A DNA stretch of 64,000 bases from assembly GCA_902799345.1 (NCBI GenBank), contig CADBZW010000020.1, forward strand, positions 50,603 through 114,602, written 5' to 3'. The stretch is from an uncultured Bacteroidia bacterium (GTDB lineage: Bacteria; Bacteroidota; Bacteroidia; Bacteroidales; F082). Positions 329-9,422 of this stretch are shown one piece after another. The position numbers were made by a program, and so were the translations under genes. Position 1 is the stretch's first letter. Every line of letters starts with the position of its first letter. The notes below the pieces were generated by a model. That model was given only the letters and a program-made list of their open reading frames with translations. It searched no databases and had not been told where the DNA came from.

Positions 329-366
329 AAAAATGCGGAGCGGCATCGTGTCGTTCCGCATTTTTA
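329..366. terminator. Bidirectional rho-independent terminator hairpin
   Basis: AAAAATGCGGA (329-339) pairs with TCCGCATTTTT (355-365). The A-run and T-run flank the stem, between convergent sppA and the minus-strand operon. Confidence 0.6.
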
Positions 367-383
367 TTGGTATTTTCGCGGTT

Positions 384-428
384 CACAAGTTTGTGGACCA
401 CAAGATTGTGGACCACAACTTTGTGAAC
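384..428. repeat. Three tandem 15-bp units, each with an internal palindrome CACAA-N2-TTGTG
   Basis: The units are CACAAGTTTGTGGAC / CACAAGATTGTGGAC / CACAACTTTGTGAAC. The whole 381-430 stretch (GGTT...AACC) is also a near-palindrome. Confidence 0.9.
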
Positions 429-438
429 CGATTTTTGG

Positions 439-627
439 CTATTTCACCACCTGCTTCCACCCCACCCAAAAGACGACCCTTTTGCCGCAGCAGGGGCAAC
501 GTTTTACGACAAATAGCCGCGTTTTGGCTGGCGCGGGATCTGTCATCGTGCCCTCTGGCAGGGTGAATAGCTTGATTTCGGTTTGGCAGCGGGGGCAGGT
601 GCGAATAAGTATCGAATTATCATTCAT
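439..627 (-). CDS. Small zinc-ribbon protein (62 aa), possible immunity or partner protein of the upstream nuclease
   Basis: Two Cys knuckles are present (CPRC ... CPCC). Its ATG overlaps the TGA of the LHH nuclease gene (ATGA), indicating translational coupling. Confidence 0.55.
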   Translation of the reverse strand: MNDNSILIRTCPRCQTEIKLFTLPEGTMTDPAPAKTRLFVVKRCPCCGKRVVFWVGWKQVVK

Positions 628-1136
628 TTACCATAGATTTTTCTCAGTTCTGTTGGCGTAAAAGCCTTGAAACGAGCCTTCCAATAGTCTGATTTCTCAC
701 GGTCGAACATTTGACGGTCGATTTCCGACTCTTTTCCGGCCTGATGCAGAATGGTGTTATTGCCGTCACCCATGTGCTCGGCCCAAGTAAGTTCGGCGAA
801 AGGCGAATCTTGATGTTGACCGATATGATGTAGTTCGTATGGATCGCCATTCATATCGCGGGGCGGAAAGCCTTCGCCTATCAAGTCGGCGTTGTTATAG
901 TCCACCCACTTGCTGTAATCGGCCAATTTGTTTTTCAGCCAAGTGTTACGTCGCACGCTGTAATCACTCCAATTAATGTCGGAGCGGATTAACGCCCAAC
1001 GATTGCCGATACGAGCGGCTTTCAGTCCAGCCTTCATGTAAATCTCAGCCTCCTCCATTGATGCGATGGCGTTGATGATTTCGTCGGGCCAGTGGGTAAG
1101 ACGATTGAGTTGTTGTTTTTCTAAGGCGTTCATCAT
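624..1136 (-). CDS. HNH/EndoVII-fold nuclease toxin domain protein, LHH-type (170 aa, stand-alone)
   Basis: The motif ...DMNGDPYELHHIGQHQDSPFAELTWAEHMGDGNNTILHQ... fits the LHH family of polymorphic-toxin nucleases (LHH, acidic residue, downstream His). No N-terminal trafficking domain is present. Confidence 0.7.
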   Translation of the reverse strand: MMNALEKQQLNRLTHWPDEIINAIASMEEAEIYMKAGLKAARIGNRWALIRSDINWSDYSVRRNTWLKNKLADYSKWVDYNNADLIGEGFPPRDMNGDPYELHHIGQHQDSPFAELTWAEHMGDGNNTILHQAGKESEIDRQMFDREKSDYWKARFKAFTPTELRKIYGK

Positions 1137-1331
1137 TGGTTATATACAACTTGCTTGAAGCCCGTCCAAAAGACGACCCTCAATTCGGGCAACGGACAAT
1201 GGCAAACGGCAGTATCTGCGGAAGCGGACATGGGTCGGTGACTTTGTGGTTACAGTGACCACCATTTCTAGCGACAAAGCTAGGCCGTTGATGCGCATCA
1301 GGCGCTTTGGGGTGATACGCAATACTTGCAT
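1133..1331 (-). pseudogene. Decayed, frame-split paralogue of the 439-627 zinc-ribbon gene
   Basis: The 63-aa frame (1140-1331) weakly parallels the N-terminal half of the Zn-ribbon protein but has lost its cysteines. A 32-aa frame (1133-1231) ends CHCPLPELRVVFWTGFKQVVYNQ, compared with CPCCGKRVVFWVGWKQVVK in the intact copy. A 15-nt exact DNA match links 1166-1180 and 466-480. The 32-aa frame stop overlaps the LHH ATG (ATGA). Confidence 0.45.
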
Positions 1332-1333
1332 GA

Positions 1334-2620
1334 TTACTGTTTATTTTCTTCATTTAAACTATTTTCGGATCCCGTACCATTTAACTCATTTTCCACTCTA
1401 GCCTCTTCATTCTTTTCGTGTAACTTTTTTAGAATTTTATCCTTCAAAATCTTCTCTTCTTGTTCTTTTAACCGTTTCATCTCCTCTTTCTTCTTTTCAA
1501 ACGCATCAAACAAATCTTGTGCCTCAAAATAAATAGAATCAGAGGCCAACGAAGCTTTTGACAACAGCATATCCAAAATAGCATTTTTAATTTCTCTTCC
1601 CGAAAAACCTTCAATCATGGCACTTGCATAATCAACGTCTTCGTCTGTAATTTCTTTAGATAAAGGTAATCTTGCAGGAAGCATTTTTCTGATTATTGCA
1701 GCCCGTGCTTCTTTATTTGGTAGTTCAAATCGAATATGTTTCAAAATTCGCGATTCAAAAGCTCTATCGAAATTTGTAACCAAATTAGTAGCAAACAAAA
1801 CCACGCCTGAGTATTGTTCAAGTTGAATAAGCATTTGGCTCCTGAGGGAATTTAATGCCTGCTCGGATCCTTGAGTTACGTTTTGGATACGTTTTCCAAG
1901 AAAAGAATCTGCTTCATCAAAAAACAATACTGAATCTGTTTTCTCTCCAATTTCAAATGCCTTTTGTAAATTTTTCGGGGCTTCACCAACATATTTGGAT
2001 TCTATCTCAGAATAGTTTAACAGCAGTATTTTCTTACCTAAATAATTAGCAACAGCATGTGCACACATCGTTTTTCCTGTTCCTGGCTCTCCATAGAAAT
2101 TCAATATGCTTCTTGGTATTGGGTCTATTTCCCCAAAGCCCCATTTGTTATATACCAGTTCCTTACATTGAATGACTTTCAACGCATTCATCAACTCCTC
2201 CCTTACTAAGTCGGGCAAAATAATCTGATTAAAATTGTACCTTGGATTTATTGGAATGAGATCCAGTACATCTTCTTTCTTTTTCGTTTCCACAACTTCT
2301 TTCTGTTTAAAGTTTAATTTGATAATCAAAGTGTGCTTCTTCAAGCAGAATTCCAATTCTTCTTTTCGTTTCTTAAGATAATCCTGGAATAATGACACAA
2401 AAGGGAAGCTTCCCTCCAAAGAGAAGGAAGCATTGTGTTCCAGTAGAAAACTGTCCTTGTTTTTCTGATGCAATTCAAAAGCACAAGCGACCTTGATAGG
2501 CCATTCTTTTTTTCTTCTCAATGTGTCTGTTACAAAACAGTTTACATCAGTTTCCAATTGATTTACATAGACAATCTCTGTTGGTTCAACAGATGAAGGA
2601 AAGGCAACAATATTAACCAT
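1334..2620 (-). CDS. Classical-clade AAA+ ATPase (428 aa) with a unique N-terminal domain and a K/E-rich coiled C-terminal tail
   Basis: Walker A is GEPGTGKT and Walker B is VLFFDEAD. The SRH-like segment is ATNLVTNFDRAFESRI, followed by the lid region GFSGREIKN. The gene is very AT-rich. Confidence 0.9.
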   Translation of the reverse strand: MVNIVAFPSSVEPTEIVYVNQLETDVNCFVTDTLRRKKEWPIKVACAFELHQKNKDSFLLEHNASFSLEGSFPFVSLFQDYLKKRKEELEFCLKKHTLIIKLNFKQKEVVETKKKEDVLDLIPINPRYNFNQIILPDLVREELMNALKVIQCKELVYNKWGFGEIDPIPRSILNFYGEPGTGKTMCAHAVANYLGKKILLLNYSEIESKYVGEAPKNLQKAFEIGEKTDSVLFFDEADSFLGKRIQNVTQGSEQALNSLRSQMLIQLEQYSGVVLFATNLVTNFDRAFESRILKHIRFELPNKEARAAIIRKMLPARLPLSKEITDEDVDYASAMIEGFSGREIKNAILDMLLSKASLASDSIYFEAQDLFDAFEKKKEEMKRLKEQEEKILKDKILKKLHEKNEEARVENELNGTGSENSLNEENKQ

Positions 2621-2907
2621 TATAAATAAATTACTTGTCCAACATATAGTTCATCTGACACGCCATCGTCTGAAGTTACTTCGAGATCTTTAATTTTATC
2701 ATTCTCTTCGTCAAAAATCCCGACATTCACTTTCTTGGTACTTTTATCGTTAATTATCATTTTAATCGCATTAGCGAACTCTTTCTTTATGGCTTCTTTT
2801 AATCTTCTTTCATTGATTTTCCTATGAATAACCATACCTCCAGCAACAGAAGCTGTTATGACTGCAGCTCCTCCAAAAATGCATAGAATTATTTTCAACC
2901 AATCCAT
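2620..2907 (-). CDS. Small membrane-anchored protein, paralogue 4 of the tandem family
   Basis: The ATG at 2907 gives MDWLKIILCIFGGAAVITASVAGGMVI (TM helix). The tracked ORF extends to a TTG at 2964. The C-terminal NVGIFDEENDK...DELYVGQVIYL resembles the shared module of the three upstream genes. The stop overlaps the AAA+ start (TAATG). Confidence 0.6.
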   Translation of the reverse strand: MDWLKIILCIFGGAAVITASVAGGMVIHRKINERRLKEAIKKEFANAIKMIINDKSTKKVNVGIFDEENDKIKDLEVTSDDGVSDELYVGQVIYL

Positions 2908-2960
2908 AATATAAGCAATAAAAGCAGGGGATACTTCATTGATGCATCCCCTGCCAATTC

Positions 2961-3332
2961 TCAACTTAGAACAACAAGCGTCTCATTCCCAAGCACTTCG
3001 GTGAGTTCTTCATCAAAGCCATCAGCATATACAATCTTCATAGGATTAAGTGAATCTTTATCATTATTGTATACACCAAGAATTAGAACCTTTGACTTGT
3101 TTGATTTAATATTCATAACTTTTAGTTTCTCTTCTCCTGGTAAAGCCAAGAAAGGAATTTGTTTACCTTTAACCATAGAAAGTGTTTTGAAATAGGCAAC
3201 CACGTCTTCTAATTTCAAATCACCTTCAACAGTTTCTTCAAGAAGAGGTTCTTTTCTTTTGCACACTGCGTATACAAAAGCTCCAACTGCAATAATGCCT
3301 AAACCTATTGCGACACCAACTATTGTTTTCAT
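2961..3332 (-). CDS. Small membrane-anchored protein, paralogue 3 (123 aa)
   Basis: The N-terminal TM helix is MKTIVGVAIGLGIIAVGAFVYAV. The segment VVAYFKTLSMVKGKQIPFLA and the C-terminal EELTEVLGNETLVVLS nearly match the 3339-3686 product. Confidence 0.7.
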   Translation of the reverse strand: MKTIVGVAIGLGIIAVGAFVYAVCKRKEPLLEETVEGDLKLEDVVAYFKTLSMVKGKQIPFLALPGEEKLKVMNIKSNKSKVLILGVYNNDKDSLNPMKIVYADGFDEELTEVLGNETLVVLS

Positions 3333-3338
3333 TATTTC

Positions 3339-3686
3339 TTAACTTAAAACCACTAGTTTTTCATTGCCCAAAACCTCTTGGGTCTCTTCATCAATTTCAT
3401 CGGCAGCCAAATAACGTGCATTCTCAATCTCATCGGTTTGCTGATTATAGGTGGCTTCAAAAATACCCACATTTTTCACGGGAGCATTTTTAATCAAATC
3501 CTTCAACTGTTCCGTATTGGCAATAAACGGAATGTCTCGATTACGAACCAGGCTTAGGGTCTTGAAATAATTAACTATTTCCTGAACAAAGCTTATAATT
3601 CCTTGAATTATCTTTTGAACAAATTCTTTTAATGCGATGAAGAAATTCCTCAAAGCATCCATTATGACATTAACAAACTTTCCCAT
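3339..3686 (-). CDS. Small protein with amphipathic or hydrophobic N-terminal helix, paralogue 2 (115 aa)
   Basis: Contains IVNYFKTLSLVRNRDIPFIA and the C-terminal EETQEVLGNEKLVVLS. There is a 7-nt gap to the next gene. Confidence 0.7.
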   Translation of the reverse strand: MGKFVNVIMDALRNFFIALKEFVQKIIQGIISFVQEIVNYFKTLSLVRNRDIPFIANTEQLKDLIKNAPVKNVGIFEATYNQQTDEIENARYLAADEIDEETQEVLGNEKLVVLS

Positions 3687-3693
3687 GTCTTTC

Positions 3694-4125
3694 TCAATTT
3701 AAAATTACTAAATCCAGATCACCAAACAATTCTTTGGTATCATCAGCCAAACTTTTAGCCTCTACAACTACGTAATGATTTGTTTCTTCGGGTAACAAAT
3801 CGCGATCCTTTACATAAGCCAAAAAGACAAATACCGATTCATCTTTGGGTTTTCTTATGGCAACAACACCATCACTACCTGCAACCATATGATTCTTAGA
3901 AAATTCGACAAGGTTACTTACCGATAGAACATCAACCTTTTCAAAAGACACATCCAATCTAGCAACATCGATAAAATCTTGCGCATTATCTTTAATCTGG
4001 CTAATTATGCCCCCATCGTCAAACAGTTTTGTTCTTGCTCTTTCCCATATTTGACGAATTACGGGAAGAGCTTTTTCAACGAACCATTTTTTTAGCTCGT
4101 TCAAATTCAAATCCATCGTGTTCAT
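3694..4125 (-). CDS. Small soluble protein, divergent paralogue 1 (143 aa)
   Basis: The C-terminal ...VFVFLAYVKDRD...HYVVVEAKSLADDTKELFGDLDLVILN follows the same strand-turn-strand-acidic-LG-LV(V/I)L(S/N) pattern as the three downstream genes. Confidence 0.65.
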   Translation of the reverse strand: MNTMDLNLNELKKWFVEKALPVIRQIWERARTKLFDDGGIISQIKDNAQDFIDVARLDVSFEKVDVLSVSNLVEFSKNHMVAGSDGVVAIRKPKDESVFVFLAYVKDRDLLPEETNHYVVVEAKSLADDTKELFGDLDLVILN

Positions 4126-4151
4126 TTTCGATTTTTGAATTAATTAACAGC

Positions 4152-4439
4152 CTACTCTCCAAGTTTTTCGGCATCCCCTATCACTTTTGCAAGCACACAA
4201 AAAGAGCGTAGCCCGACTTTTATATTCCGAAAGAAAGGCTCTGGTAAACCGTATAGAAGAATCATAAAAGCAGTCCACGCCCATATAGGGCGGAACGCCA
4301 GAACGATTGCTCCTCTATTGTTGAAATTTACCAGATTTCTTCTTTTCAGAGCAAAACGTCTTTCAACGTTCTCAATGTCTGTCGCCGTAGCAACGCTGCA
4401 AATATACAATTTTTTCATATACTCGCACAACTCAGACAT
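4152..4439 (-). CDS. Small membrane protein (95 aa)
   Basis: ATG start. The central hydrophobic stretch is GAIVLAFRPIWAWTAFMILLYGL. The gene sits in the operon with gaps of 26-37 nt. Confidence 0.5.
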   Translation of the reverse strand: MSELCEYMKKLYICSVATATDIENVERRFALKRRNLVNFNNRGAIVLAFRPIWAWTAFMILLYGLPEPFFRNIKVGLRSFCVLAKVIGDAEKLGE

Positions 4440-4476
4440 TTTTTCTGCGGACTGCTTTCTCTCGCTTCGTTTTGGC

Positions 4477-4737
4477 TTAGGAGCCTTTCAAGTTCTTGGC
4501 ATAATAATGCTTGAATATCGGCTTGCAAATCTTTTTGTGAACAATCACATAAAGGATTACGCCGACAACGGTGCCGATGATTTTTATGATGATAACGTTA
4601 TCAAAGAATATGAATAAGGGCACCAACACAACCAATGCAGGCAATGCCGCCAAAACCATTGCCACCTTGTCGGCAGAACCTGCCTTGGTCCTCAGGTAAG
4701 CCTTGCGCCGTTGCGCAATTGTATATGCGTTCCCCAT
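4477..4737 (-). CDS. Small two-TM membrane protein (~86 aa)
   Basis: The hydrophobic stretches are VAMVLAALPALVVLVPLFIFF and IIGTVVGVILYVIV. The ATG at 4737 overlaps the TGA of the upstream gene (TGATG). Confidence 0.55.
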   Translation of the reverse strand: MGNAYTIAQRRKAYLRTKAGSADKVAMVLAALPALVVLVPLFIFFDNVIIIKIIGTVVGVILYVIVHKKICKPIFKHYYAKNLKGS

Positions 4738-5270
4738 CACACCATGGCTTTAAACAACGTCTCTAGATTCTCCACCAACTTGTCGTCGAAAGTGATTCCC
4801 CTGCCCAAGACCAACGACCCAACCACATTGCCGTTGAGAGACAAACGATGTCCCAAATAGGTGGTCCCTTCAAATACGATATCGCCTAAGCTGATTTCGT
4901 TGAGGTCGCTCAAAGCCACCTTGCCTCTTTTTTTGCCGGAAGCCAACATGGTGATTCCCCGAAAAAGGAAAGTGATTTTCATGCATTGGTAATACACGTT
5001 GCGGTCGGTCACCAACAAGCCCGTCAGCCTTCCCCATATCGCCACTTTCACGTCTACCATGAACAGGGGCTTCTCGCCGGGTTCTAGGCTCACATACTTC
5101 GCGTGCTGCTGAAGTTTCTCGTTAGTGATTTGGTCAGCCTCCAACAAAAGCGGGCTGATGACCTGGTTGCGACTCATTTTTTCAAATGTCGCTTTGATAA
5201 TTTCCGAATAGTCTTTCATTGTGATATGTTTCTGGTTATCTGATAGTTTTCCTTTTTTCACCAATCCCAC
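4737..5270 (-). CDS. Hypothetical protein with bacterial PH/GRAM-like features (177 aa from GTG 5270; 160 aa from ATG 5219)
   Basis: The pattern ...GLLVTDRNVYYQ...KVALSDLNEISLGD...LSLNGNVVGSL... resembles bacterial PH-like domains. The assignment is by eye only. Confidence 0.5.
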   Translation of the reverse strand: MGLVKKGKLSDNQKHITMKDYSEIIKATFEKMSRNQVISPLLLEADQITNEKLQQHAKYVSLEPGEKPLFMVDVKVAIWGRLTGLLVTDRNVYYQCMKITFLFRGITMLASGKKRGKVALSDLNEISLGDIVFEGTTYLGHRLSLNGNVVGSLVLGRGITFDDKLVENLETLFKAMV

Positions 5271-5704: not shown

Positions 5705-5799
5705 CGCAAGTTTCAATCCCGACTTTTTTCGGAAGAGAAAAGCCAATTAAAACCTTTGAAAAACAACGTTTTATAATCGTAAGAAATCGTAAAGTGGGC

Positions 5800-7467
5800 T
5801 TACAAGCCAAACAAATCCTTGTAATACCTGACCGCCGCCGAATCGTTTTCGAGGACTTTGGCTATTTTATCCGCATTGGCGTTTTTAGCCATGTTGTCGT
5901 CGGCAAAAAGTCGCTCCAAATCGTTCCAAGAAAGCCCCGAACGATGCAAGCCATAGAAAAGCAACTGGCCGGCCTTGCCCTTGACAGCCTTCAAACGCTT
6001 ACCTTGCCTACAGACAAAATTCCTCGACAACAATCCCTCCAGCAACTGCACCAAATCACGATCACCTTTGGCAGTGGCAATCACACAAGTTGAATCTTTG
6101 AAAACGCTGTAAACCAAGTTATTCAGTTCGGTTTTCGACATCTTTGCCGACAAATAATCAGATGGACGCAGCGACTGCCCTTTCGCGAGATTCTTGTGGC
6201 GTAGATAGGTCTTTTCTTTCCCGTGTTCAAGACTAACCTTTTCGTGGACCACACCATCGAACTGGAGCAACAAAGCCTGCCCTTTTTCCACAATGGAACT
6301 TAAATTCGGGCAGATGATCACTTCCAAAAACATCTTATCGCTGTCTTTCACATCCAGCAACAGCAAAATGCGACATAGTTTATTGTCAGCCAATGCTTTA
6401 AGACACGATTTCAAAGTATCATTGGCATCAGTAAGATAAAGAATGACTACATCCGTGTCCTCAAGAGAACCAACTTTGCCCAAATCGAACCACAACAATT
6501 CAGATAGTTCACCACCCACATCAATGGCTTTTGTATCAGCAATTTCCAGAGGGAACGAAGATGCGCAACGGAAGTCTTTGGTCAGTTCTTTTAGATGGGG
6601 TTCAAAAGCACCTACCAACTTGTCCAATTCATGTTTTGCGGACAGTTTTCCGATAAGGTATGACATTAATTCGTTATCCCAGATGTTGGGTTGGGCAACT
6701 TCCACCATTTCGGATGTCAGTTTCAAGTCTTCGGGCGGAACAAACTGGCGAAATCGCGCCTTCTGCAAGGCATTGAGCATGAGTCGGGCGGCAGTGGCCT
6801 CATCATCAAGGCAAAAAGCCAATTGGAAGTCGGCAAACAATTCCTTCGGTGATTTCTTTGGTTGCACCTTATATAAATAGCGGTTGATGGTCAGTGTTTC
6901 GGAACGGAAATCATCGAAATGGGTCAAACCCATGATTTCGTCCCTGGCAATTTTCTTGTCCAACAACGTTTTCAAGGCTGCGTTCCAAACCAACAGCACT
7001 TCGGGTTGCACGGTTTCCAATAATTCCTGGAAAGCATCCCAATCCTCGTAGCGATAGGCCAATCCTTTCTCCTCGTATTCAGGTACTTGTGGCGACGGAC
7101 AGAAATACTGCAAATAATTGGCGAAAGCCACCTGTTCCCAAAACTCCGTTTTTTTGGCTTCGGTGCAGTCGTCGGTCTTGCCTAACATCAGTTTCGTGAA
7201 ATAGGAATAAGTCGGATAGCGGTCGTATTCCTCCAAAAAAGCGTCGATTTCAATTTGGTTGCTTAGCGAAAGGCACAAGTCGTGGCGGTCGCCGTAGGCA
7301 GGGCAGTTAGCATCATAACTTGCACAATTCCTTTGCATTACACAATCCTCATAAAACGGGCACTGCTTCAGTACGCAATGATGCTTCACGCCCAAGACAA
7401 GGGTTCGGTAGCCCTTGAAGCCCTCTTGATAATGCTGCCCTATGCGCGGTTGGAAGAACATCGGCAC
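5800..7467 (-). CDS. Large hypothetical protein (555 aa) with a Cys-rich N-terminal region
   Basis: Long ORF with normal composition. Six Cys occur within residues 31-65 (HHC..QC..DC..NC..NC..LC). The GTG at 7467 touches, and the ATG at 7461 closely follows, the ABC-F stop codon. Confidence 0.7.
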   Translation of the reverse strand: MPMFFQPRIGQHYQEGFKGYRTLVLGVKHHCVLKQCPFYEDCVMQRNCASYDANCPAYGDRHDLCLSLSNQIEIDAFLEEYDRYPTYSYFTKLMLGKTDDCTEAKKTEFWEQVAFANYLQYFCPSPQVPEYEEKGLAYRYEDWDAFQELLETVQPEVLLVWNAALKTLLDKKIARDEIMGLTHFDDFRSETLTINRYLYKVQPKKSPKELFADFQLAFCLDDEATAARLMLNALQKARFRQFVPPEDLKLTSEMVEVAQPNIWDNELMSYLIGKLSAKHELDKLVGAFEPHLKELTKDFRCASSFPLEIADTKAIDVGGELSELLWFDLGKVGSLEDTDVVILYLTDANDTLKSCLKALADNKLCRILLLLDVKDSDKMFLEVIICPNLSSIVEKGQALLLQFDGVVHEKVSLEHGKEKTYLRHKNLAKGQSLRPSDYLSAKMSKTELNNLVYSVFKDSTCVIATAKGDRDLVQLLEGLLSRNFVCRQGKRLKAVKGKAGQLLFYGLHRSGLSWNDLERLFADDNMAKNANADKIAKVLENDSAAVRYYKDLFGL

Positions 7468-9422
7468 TATTTTTCATACTCCGCCATCACCTCGTCATGT
7501 TCCATCTGCCTCTCTCCCCAGTCATCCATGAGGTGTTGGAGTTGCTCTTTCTTTTGGCCGTAAGCCCAATACCAGTCGTTGTCAATCTTGATGTCGGGAT
7601 GCTCGTCGGGATGGGCCATGATGGCATCTTGCTCGGCTAGTTCGGCTTCCAATTTGCCGATGGCTTCTTCGAGGCGTTGGATTTCCTTGTCGACCTTGCG
7701 GAGCTTGGCGTCAATCTGCTTCTTGCGCTCGTAGTTGATTTTGTTCTGCGAGACAGGTTCAGCGGCGACTTTCTGAGGCTGTTGCTTGGCGGCTATCTCC
7801 AACTCCTTCAAGTGAGTGAGGTTCTTTTGTTCCAAAAAGTCATAAATGTCGCCAACGTACTCCTTGATGTTAGGCTTGCGGAATTCGTAGACTTTGTTGG
7901 TCAGACCTTGCAGGAAGTCGCGGTCGTGGGAGACGATGATTAAGGTGCCGTCATATTGGATTAAGGCGTTTTTCAGGATGTCCTTGGAGAGCATGTCCAA
8001 GTGGTTCGTCGGCTCGTCGAGGACCAACATATTGGTTGGGAAAAGCAGCATCTTGGCCAAGGAAAGACGGGCCTTCTCGCCTCCCGAGAGCACCTTCACC
8101 TTCTTGTCGATGTCGTCGCCACGGAAGAGGAAGGAGCCGAGCAAAGCCTTCACCTTAAGACGCATGTCGCCCACAGCCACATCGTCCAAGGTCTCAAAGA
8201 CGGTCTTGTTCATGTCGAGCATATCCTGCTGGTTCTGGGCGTAATATCCAATTTTAACCTCATGACCCAGCTTTACCTCACCTTCATGGTCGAGCACGCC
8301 GCAAATAATTTTAGACAGCGTGGATTTGCCCTCGCCATTGCGTCCCACAAAGGCAATCTTCTCCCCTCTCGGAATCAACAGGTTGACGTCTTTGAGGATG
8401 ACCTGGTCGCCGTAGGACTTGCTCACATGGTTCAGCTCCAGCGTCACCTTGCCAGAATGAGGCGCAGGCGGAAACTTGAAATGGATGGCTGTGCTGTCGA
8501 TGTCGTCAATGACGATTTCATCCATCTTTTCGAGCAGCTTCACGCGGCTCTGCACCTGTTTGGCTTTGGTCGCCTTGTAGCGGAACCGCTCGATGAACGC
8601 CTCTATATTCTTGATTTCGCGCTGCTGGTTCTCGTAGGCCGAGCGTTGCATGTCGACGCGCTCCTCACGGAGACCGACATACTCGGAATACGGCACCTTG
8701 TAGTCATAGATTTTGCCATTCGAGATTTCCACCGTGCGGATGGTGATGTTGTCGAGGAAAGCGCGGTCGTGGGAGACCATCAGGATGGCACCGTAATAGG
8801 CCTTCAGGAAGCCTTCGAGCCATTGGATGGACTCGATGTCGAGGTGGTTGGTGGGCTCGTCGAGGAGGAGCAGGTTGGGCTTTTTCAACAAGATTTTCGC
8901 CAATTCCACGCGCATTTGCCAGCCGTTGCTGAACTCGCGCATGGGGCGCAGCATGTCCTCATGGCCGAAACCCAATCCGACCAAAATCCGCTCCGCTTCA
9001 CCTTCGATGCTATTGCCACCGAGCAAGGCCAAGCGGTCGTTCAAGTTGTTCAACTTAACTATCAGCTTCTCGTATTGCGGGCTTTCATAGTCTGTGCGCT
9101 CAGCCAATTCCTGTTGCAGACGCTCCGAATCACGTTCCAGTTGATGGTATTCGTCGAAGGCAGAAAGGGCCTCATCCAAAACCGTTTTCGTGCTGTTGAC
9201 GTTCTTCTCCTGAGGCAAATAACCTATGGTAACGCCCTGAGGAATAATCACATCGCCTTTTGAAGGCTGTTCCAACCCACAAATGAGCTTCAGCAACGTA
9301 GTCTTGCCCGCACCATTCTTTCCCACGAGGCCGATACGGTCTTTCTCGCGGATCAAAAAGGAGATGTCGGTGAAGAGGTCTTCACCGGTGAAGTGCATGC
9401 TGAGGTTTTGGATTGAAATCAT
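7467..9422 (-). CDS. ABC-F family ATPase (translation factor or ribosome-associated type, 651 aa)
   Basis: Two nucleotide-binding domains are present (GKNGAGKTT and GRNGEGKST; LSGG signatures). There is an inter-domain linker, no TM segments, and a charged coiled C-terminal extension. Confidence 0.95.
   Translation of the reverse strand: MISIQNLSMHFTGEDLFTDISFLIREKDRIGLVGKNGAGKTTLLKLICGLEQPSKGDVIIPQGVTIGYLPQEKNVNSTKTVLDEALSAFDEYHQLERDSERLQQELAERTDYESPQYEKLIVKLNNLNDRLALLGGNSIEGEAERILVGLGFGHEDMLRPMREFSNGWQMRVELAKILLKKPNLLLLDEPTNHLDIESIQWLEGFLKAYYGAILMVSHDRAFLDNITIRTVEISNGKIYDYKVPYSEYVGLREERVDMQRSAYENQQREIKNIEAFIERFRYKATKAKQVQSRVKLLEKMDEIVIDDIDSTAIHFKFPPAPHSGKVTLELNHVSKSYGDQVILKDVNLLIPRGEKIAFVGRNGEGKSTLSKIICGVLDHEGEVKLGHEVKIGYYAQNQQDMLDMNKTVFETLDDVAVGDMRLKVKALLGSFLFRGDDIDKKVKVLSGGEKARLSLAKMLLFPTNMLVLDEPTNHLDMLSKDILKNALIQYDGTLIIVSHDRDFLQGLTNKVYEFRKPNIKEYVGDIYDFLEQKNLTHLKELEIAAKQQPQKVAAEPVSQNKINYERKKQIDAKLRKVDKEIQRLEEAIGKLEAELAEQDAIMAHPDEHPDIKIDNDWYWAYGQKKEQLQHLMDDWGERQMEHDEVMAEYEK

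Follow-up and report, generated by a model that had tools for sequence, protein, structure and literature searches.

MqsR/MqsA is a type II toxin-antitoxin (TA) module whose antitoxin is a zinc ribbon, and the orphan toxin/immunity arrays of contact-dependent inhibition (CDI) and Rhs systems, like the acquired interbacterial defence clusters of Bacteroidales, consist of tandem cassettes with gene fragments at their junctions that are exchanged via shared homology. The LHH family of HNH/EndoVII nucleases (Tox-LHH, PF14411) was defined in secreted polymorphic toxins accompanied by SUKH immunity (PMC3113570, PMC3482391). Here we describe a stretch of 64,000 nt from an uncultured Bacteroidia bacterium of the order Bacteroidales (assembly GCA_902799345.1, contig CADBZW010000020.1, positions 50,603 to 114,602), referred to as the window, in which a free-standing LHH gene is followed by a 62-aa zinc-ribbon gene, designated ZnR, and preceded by the remains of a paralogous ribbon gene, designated ZnR', and of a DUF6140 gene. 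There is good support for reading this locus as a decayed four-gene block, situated in a defence hotspot, in which the ribbon paralogues recombine as repeats.

With the Tox-LHH domains of polymorphic toxins, the window gene shares the LHH dyad and the downstream histidines, and its 170 aa correspond to the C-terminal toxin module; it differs in having no secretion-system context and neither of the two parts that mark a polymorphic toxin, an N-terminal trafficking (or repeat) region and a cognate SUKH immunity gene downstream. Like MqsR/MqsA, LHH and ZnR are two small overlapping genes (nt 624-627) for a potential toxin and a zinc-binding mini-protein, in an order that varies between lineages, but the constant presence of an antitoxin that characterizes type II modules is not seen here: most LHH loci lack the ribbon partner, which is also found in loci that have no LHH and matches neither MqsA nor any other antitoxin. 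The CDI/Rhs arrays and the acquired Bacteroidales clusters resemble the locus in all the traits named above; however, what is repeated here is a small ribbon gene rather than a conserved toxin segment, the toxin-type gene retains its full length, and no recombinase is linked. Defence hotspots with Eleos, AbiE, and AAA+ genes likewise hold variable same-strand cassettes between conserved flanks, and Eleos and AbiE genes themselves adjoin LHH or ZnR in relatives, whereas LHH, ZnR, and DUF6140 are not in PADLOC and their role in defence is putative. From an integron the locus differs in lacking a linked site-specific recombinase and in having junctions that do not fall at one precise site.

Results

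Recombination between ribbon genes in related loci

Relative loci or contigs compared with the window carry L-numbers (L014, L018, and so on), and most of these relatives are metagenome assemblies. The ancestral block consisted of DUF6140, ZnR', LHH, and ZnR in this order, all encoded by the same strand, with overlapping stop and start codons linking the genes. ZnR' is intact in four relatives: in L014 and L021 (LHH 93-95% identical), a complete 63-aa ZnR' immediately precedes LHH, overlapping it by ATGA, and a ZnR lies downstream, giving the order ZnR'-LHH-ZnR, and in L018 and L024, DUF6140 and then the intact ZnR' are found upstream of LHH. L024 and L149 represent a compact state, in which a gene of a 555-aa family (c11) is followed by DUF6140, ZnR', and LHH. 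L018 equals L024 with two insertions, a 4.3-kb AT-rich AAA+ module between c11 and DUF6140, and an 820-nt insert that pairs a 52-aa gene with a GNAT gene and has a 47-nt direct repeat, derived from the ZnR' 3' end, on its two sides; relative to the GNAT pair, L024 is the empty state. As a complete ZnR' stands on one side of this pair and a second copy of the ZnR' 3' end on the other, the cassette insertion proposed in a preliminary description of the window is borne out. The pair itself (L018 nt 7127-7829, between ZnR' and LHH, with a GNAT protein of 176 aa) has the look of a TacA/TacT-like TA system and gave no match in NCBIfam.

Other relatives carry a different cassette. In L136 and L125, AbiEi/AbiEii lie between two copies of a unit made of the LHH 3' end and ZnR; the left ribbon copy ends directly behind VVFW.G, and the right copy retains its native end and the palindromic repeat, so that the L136 array reads ZnR-LHH-ZnR-AbiE-ZnR. 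The AbiE junctions of L104 and L101 are the same, but LHH is reduced there to its last ~50 nt. The suggested turnover of cassettes between ribbon copies is upheld by this replacement of LHH by AbiE between two ribbon genes (L104, L101, L125, L136).

Ribbon genes of mixed ancestry were detected by window-by-window identity. The ribbon between the two LHH copies of L128 begins as ZnR (90-100% at the 5' end) and finishes as ZnR' (90-97% at the 3' end), and a similar ZnR-to-ZnR' switch is present in the first ribbon of L136. The ribbon that follows DUF6140 in L104 has a 5' end of the ZnR' type and a middle that is 90-96% ZnR-like, and it ends at the AbiE junction. Such chimeras are the reciprocal products, duplication and deletion, expected of unequal exchange between flanking paralogues. 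ZnR and ZnR' act as direct repeats for both homologous and illegitimate recombination; their unequal exchange has yielded both a tandem LHH duplication with a ZnR/ZnR' chimera and the loss of LHH with a ZnR'/ZnR chimera left behind. LHH is lost or broken in L099, L098, L101, L104, L124, and L128. It was also observed that in two metagenome contigs, L124 (nt 924-1277) and L128 (nt 1295-1648), a copy of LHH is cut at residue 118 and joined to one foreign sequence, which looks like a recurrent junction.

The AbiE and GNAT cassettes may have entered by single-crossover integration of a circle carrying a piece of a ribbon gene. In the window, decay of the upstream ribbon repeat would have removed the homology needed for looping LHH out. 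A palindromic block follows ZnR in L004, L014, L104, L136, L125, and L153, and in L004 (nt 5709-5753 and 6971-7015) and L021 one copy precedes and another follows an inserted ATPase_2 gene of 1.2 kb, resembling an insertion site that was duplicated. The natural intermediates seen at the locus cover empty, filled, duplicated, replaced, and decayed states, and they show how cassette turnover in a defence hotspot can be driven by a short repeated gene in the absence of a dedicated recombinase.

Origin of the segment upstream of LHH

In the window, 197 nt separate the stop of the AAA+ gene (nt 1334) from the start of LHH (nt 1136). The preliminary description had read this gap as a broken copy of the downstream ribbon gene. 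The features it relied on are present as claimed: a 15-nt exact match links nt 466-480 in ZnR with nt 1166-1180 in the gap, and the tails are similar, the 32-aa frame in the gap ending in RVVFWTGFKQVVYNQ and the intact ZnR in RVVFWVGWKQVVK. The best local nucleotide alignment of the gap with ZnR (35 nt, 28 identical) scored 35; the highest score among 1000 shuffles was 30, and among 2000 other segments of the window it was 27. Homology to a ribbon gene therefore stands; descent from the downstream gene does not, as the source is the paralogue ZnR'. By blastn, nt 1236-1146 match the 3' part of ZnR' in L018 (nt 6922-7019), and nt 1347-1243 match the 5' end of DUF6140 in L018 (nt 6604-6708) at 77% and the DUF6140 gene of L104 at 83%. 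By tblastn, the remnant matched ZnR' with E=1e-5 and DUF6140 residues 1-30 with 67% identity and E=4e-8. A 63-aa open reading frame (ORF; nt 1140-1331) had no Pfam match and did not reach the profile cut-off of DUF6140 (PF19637), as fits the size of a 30-codon fragment; the DUF6140 homology rests on blastn and tblastn.

About 213 nt that separate the DUF6140 and ZnR' segments in L018 are absent from the window. Multiple alignment further revealed that the window ZnR' is short of 7 nt in the second CxxC knuckle, with a frameshift and a TGA at nt 1180-1182 as the result. Because of the ~213-nt fusion deletion and the 7-nt loss in ZnR', the segment is a composite pseudogene, in which the 5' end of DUF6140 is fused to the last third of ZnR' (Table 1). 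On the path from the ancestral block to this genome, DUF6140 and ZnR' were fused by the larger deletion, and ZnR' lost the further 7 nt. What had been taken for the N-terminal half of the ribbon homology, lying in another frame, proved to be mostly the 5' end of DUF6140 (nt 1243-1331) read out of frame, with only about 20 residues derived from ZnR'. Taken by itself, the remnant is an ordinary pseudogene.

ZnR and ZnR' are old paralogues, each under purifying selection among its orthologues. Between them, the nonsynonymous divergence (dN) is 0.31 and the synonymous divergence (dS) about 2.3. Orthologues of ZnR have dN/dS values of 0.07-0.30, and those of ZnR' have values of 0.14-0.19. Given this dS and the low orthologue ratios, the four synonymous differences noted earlier between the two tails point to past constraint on both genes; they had also been offered as a possible sign of present selection on the 32-aa frame, and this part of the claim fell away.

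The nearest relatives of the window are L118, with flanks 97% and 93% identical, and also L023 and L120. The window departs from these three in a single block, which spans the AT-rich module, the remnant, and the first ~40 nt of LHH and has its right edge at nt 1097, inside LHH. Homology to L118, L023, L120, L004, and L103 begins at this position, and the N-terminal residues of LHH are of two allele types, in line with a breakpoint there. Because a single block of difference ends inside LHH, the remnant came, or stayed, with the AAA+ module and not with LHH-ZnR; with the remnant and the AT-rich module sharing one block, the earlier proposal of acquisition separate from the AT-rich operon is not sustained for the remnant. 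The AAA+ ATPase next to the remnant is IetA-like (E=6e-30). The guanine-plus-cytosine content of nt 439-1333 is 49.9%, and not the ~55% first estimated, with a window mean of 49.8% and 35% in the neighbouring AT-rich module.

The start codon of ZnR overlaps the stop codon of LHH in the ATGA at nt 624-627, as initially described for the CPRC/CPCC gene 3' of LHH, and the stop of the 32-aa frame overlaps the LHH start in the ATGA at nt 1133-1136, again in agreement with that description. No sigma-70-type promoter was found, and the Bacteroidetes -7 motif TAnnTTTG occurs 5' of LHH in a single copy (nt 1275-1282), at chance frequency. The hairpin beyond ZnR is likely the shared terminator of convergent sppA and ZnR transcripts.

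Table 1. Features of the LHH-ZnR locus, with coordinates in the window
Feature	Position (nt)	Strand	Description
ZnR	439-627	-	Intact 62-aa basic zinc-ribbon gene, knuckles CPRC and CPCC
LHH nuclease	624-1136	-	Intact free-standing Tox-LHH (HNH/EndoVII) gene, 170 aa, toxin module only
Composite pseudogene	1137-1333	-	DUF6140 5' end plus ZnR' 3' end
ZnR' fragment	1133-1236	-	Paralogous ribbon gene, about codons 30-63; 7-nt deletion at 1180|1181
DUF6140 fragment	1243-1331	-	First 89 nt (about 30 codons), fused to ZnR' fragment
LHH 5' end	1097-1136	-	Allele type different from remainder of LHH; recombination breakpoint at ~1097
Palindromic repeat	381-430	.	Triple 15-bp palindrome GTTCACAAnnTTGTGGTCCACAAnnTTGTGGTCCACAAnnTTGTGAAC, travels with ZnR
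Hairpin	329-365	+	17 pairs, A and T runs on either side; from terminator scan
AAA+ ATPase	1334-2620	-	PF00004, E=1e-26; last gene of AT-rich module

The nuclease and its ribbon neighbour

The LHH signature first noticed in the 170-aa ORF was borne out by a match to PF14411 (E=3.7e-19; 69.1 bits against a curated cut-off of 23.3; residues 81-157). In 21 homologues, L102, H103, H104, H121, and H131, which make up the LHH triad and the downstream metal-binding histidines, are invariant, as are about 45% of all alignment columns, catalytic residues included. More than 560 homologue clusters belong to the family, nearly all of 156-175 aa and from rumen and gut Bacteroidales. LHH is rare, being carried by 3 of the 301 genomes of the order and by neither of two sampled genomes of the same genus, and it was not found on IMG/VR viral contigs. 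Residues 5-157 align with the C-termini of proteins of 200-930 aa, two of which have VWA domains; the window gene is therefore the bare toxin module, and the N-terminal delivery domain is missing, as previously remarked. A PDB sequence search with the LHH profile returned nothing at E<=1, and Foldseek of the AlphaFold2 (AF2) model (predicted local distance difference test [pLDDT] score of 84) against the PDB gave a best match no better than E=3.6. The gene 3' of LHH gave no SUKH match, ZnR being a generic zinc ribbon, and no neighbouring gene is constant across 84 LHH loci. LHH is predicted to be an active cytoplasmic DNase, a latent effector in defence islands and not a secreted polymorphic toxin. 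This clade, previously regarded as limited to secreted polymorphic toxins, also exists as a conserved, free-standing, predicted-cytoplasmic gene in Bacteroidales defence islands.

ZnR, with 48 homologue clusters, is basic (pI of 9.7; charge of +6.5), and its AF2 model is a four-strand zinc ribbon (pLDDT of 78). PDB and Foldseek searches returned generic zinc ribbons only, the best being ZitP (E=0.36), and NCBIfam gave only sub-threshold generic ribbon matches and none to MqsA or another antitoxin. In this genome, LHH and ZnR are both intact and under purifying selection.

We then surveyed 84 non-redundant LHH loci for a same-strand CxxC...CxxC mini-ORF within 150 nt of LHH. Such an ORF was present in 26 loci, against a background of about 0.007 per comparable stretch, and absent from the other 58. 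The ribbon mini-ORFs adjoining LHH are of at least three unrelated sequence types, upstream of LHH in some lineages and downstream in others. Small ORFs clustering with LHH had been considered as possible LHH fragments and proved to be unrelated zinc-ribbon mini-genes.

That LHH and ZnR are a true toxin-antitoxin or toxin-immunity pair, in which ZnR would bind and neutralise the nuclease and the module would serve to stabilise the island or to abort infection, is in our judgement rather doubtful. Translational coupling through the ATGA overlap would suit such a pair, as would the origin of the LHH family in polymorphic toxins (PMC3113570, PMC3482391), and within the clade of at least 86% identity, most arrangements hold at least one intact ribbon. 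The three unrelated ribbon types that abut LHH are also compatible with it, as a single nuclease family can have unrelated immunity families (bioRxiv 10.64898/2026.09.22.753552). Apart from the 58 ribbonless loci, however, some LHH genes are solo: in L040, L038, L046, L036, and L045, LHH is intact, has genes of the opposite strand on its two sides, and has no credible small ORF close to it. In L103, LHH is intact beside a frameshifted ZnR and ZnR' is absent, and this locus also ruled out the proposition that every close-clade LHH keeps an intact ribbon. ZnR in turn persists without LHH, as the ribbon profile recovered 38 metagenome loci of which 14 lack an LHH gene within 3 kb; in the LHH-less loci, ZnR comes last, often overlapping, after unrelated cassettes (VWA plus WHH-like, Schlafen/AlbA_2, MORN plus OmpA, and AbiE genes). 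Finally, ZnR is basic, whereas in characterised DNase immunity proteins the surface that blocks the active site is acidic or electrostatically DNA-like (PMC13392607; bioRxiv 10.64898/2026.09.22.753552). Because of the ribbonless and solo loci, L103, the occurrence of ZnR in unrelated cassettes, and its charge, we see in ZnR a frequent companion of LHH that may modulate it but is probably not an obligate immunity protein, contrary to its initial reading as a dedicated immunity gene. ZnR may instead be a small basic nucleic-acid-binding or regulatory mini-protein.

Taken as a whole, an account in which the locus is the eroded end of a mosaic island, with recombining ribbon repeats, LHH as a latent DNase effector, and ZnR as an accessory ribbon, appears to us moderately probable. 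Several points weigh against it. A solo intact non-specific DNase is expected to be lethal, yet partnerless LHH genes exist, and neither PADLOC nor PHROGs has a model for LHH, ZnR, or DUF6140. The single frameshifts in L103, L101, and L136 may be assembly errors. Integration of circles rests on junction patterns only, and with the repeats diverged (85% in L018), other routes are possible; the junctions also vary in position within ZnR, and no precise site is used.

Alternative routes of cassette exchange

The AbiE left junction falls after VVFW.G and the GNAT right junction ~47 nt before the stop, while others lie near codon 8. Tyrosine recombinases (PF00589) gave eight matches in the genome and none on the contig of the window. 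With no recombinase on the contig and with differing junctions, host recombination is favoured over a dedicated site-specific system.

A bolder extension, which we regard as quite unlikely, would make the ribbon genes and the palindromic repeat portable homology handles. Defence cassettes such as LHH, AbiE, and GNAT pairs would leave as looped-out circles and be taken into further genomes through host homologous recombination, much as in an integron but with no integrase, at the sppA hotspot in Bacteroidales of rumen and gut; the double-strand breaks initiating the exchange might come from LHH.

Were the ribbon genes and the palindromic repeat the boundaries of a dedicated, integron-like site-specific cassette system, arrays such as that of L136 and the duplication of the 48-bp palindromic block around an inserted ATPase gene would find a ready explanation. 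Such a system is nonetheless very improbable, as the contig carries no tyrosine recombinase, the junction positions in ZnR vary between events, and the chimeras resemble ordinary homologous exchange.

No better placed is the idea, raised in the preliminary description, that LHH is a free-standing homing-type endonuclease inserted in a zinc-ribbon gene and spreading itself and its flanks by cutting empty alleles. It draws on the bracketing of LHH by repeats of one gene, on the sharp bounds of the LHH-ZnR unit in a new context (L007, corresponding to window nt 1121-441), and on the mosaic content upstream of LHH. In L014 and L021, however, both flanking ribbon genes are complete and are not two halves of one, and the paralogues are old, as judged from their dS. 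Moreover, this LHH clade is not known among homing enzymes, is not found on viral contigs, and is easily lost or broken (in the six loci listed above), so that homing into a ribbon gene is highly improbable.

That the upstream frames of 32 aa (nt 1133-1231) or 63 aa (nt 1140-1331) are still functional small genes is extremely improbable, for although both are open and the shorter one keeps its ATGA overlap with LHH, both cysteine knuckles are gone, the 63-aa frame passes from DUF6140 into out-of-frame ZnR', neither frame has a Pfam match, and the segment that holds them is wholly absent from the closest relatives.

Genomic neighbourhood

The locus forms the right-hand end, now eroded, of a mosaic island of defence type that lies between sppA and an ABC-F gene. 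In relatives, LHH ends same-strand arrays with Eleos dynamin-like pairs, AAA+/IetA-like ATPases, GTPases, and WYL regulators; in L077 (nt 847-4810), LeoBC (E=1e-106) and LeoA (E=9e-149) lie directly upstream of LHH. Eleos (LeoBC/LeoA) pairs were also seen immediately upstream of LHH in L025, L026, L063, L069, and L082, which belong to unrelated Bacteroidales lineages.

DUF6140 is likewise enriched around LHH: it occurs within 5 kb in 18 loci, although just 9 of the 301 genomes sampled from the order possess the gene. No paper on DUF6140 turned up in the literature. On another contig of this genome (C47, nt 8179-8379; L107 nt 1486-1734), an additional DUF6140 gene, which is intact, adjoins genes for a 118-aa helical protein and a radical-SAM protein, with no ribbon or LHH nearby.

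The window member of the c11 family (nt 5800-7467) encodes a 555-aa cysteine-rich orphan with no Pfam, PADLOC, or PHROG match. Members of the family are found near LHH in 12 loci of distant lineages (among them L024, L149, L030, L033, L080, L075, and L083), mostly upstream of LHH and directly downstream in two. This recurrence may reflect a functional link or a shared island frame.

In L122, a 402-aa lipoprotein-like protein (nt 864-2072) with a weak C-terminal WHH (HNH/EndoVII) match is encoded between a VWA protein gene and ZnR; judged by this match, it would be a second nuclease type in the slot before ZnR.

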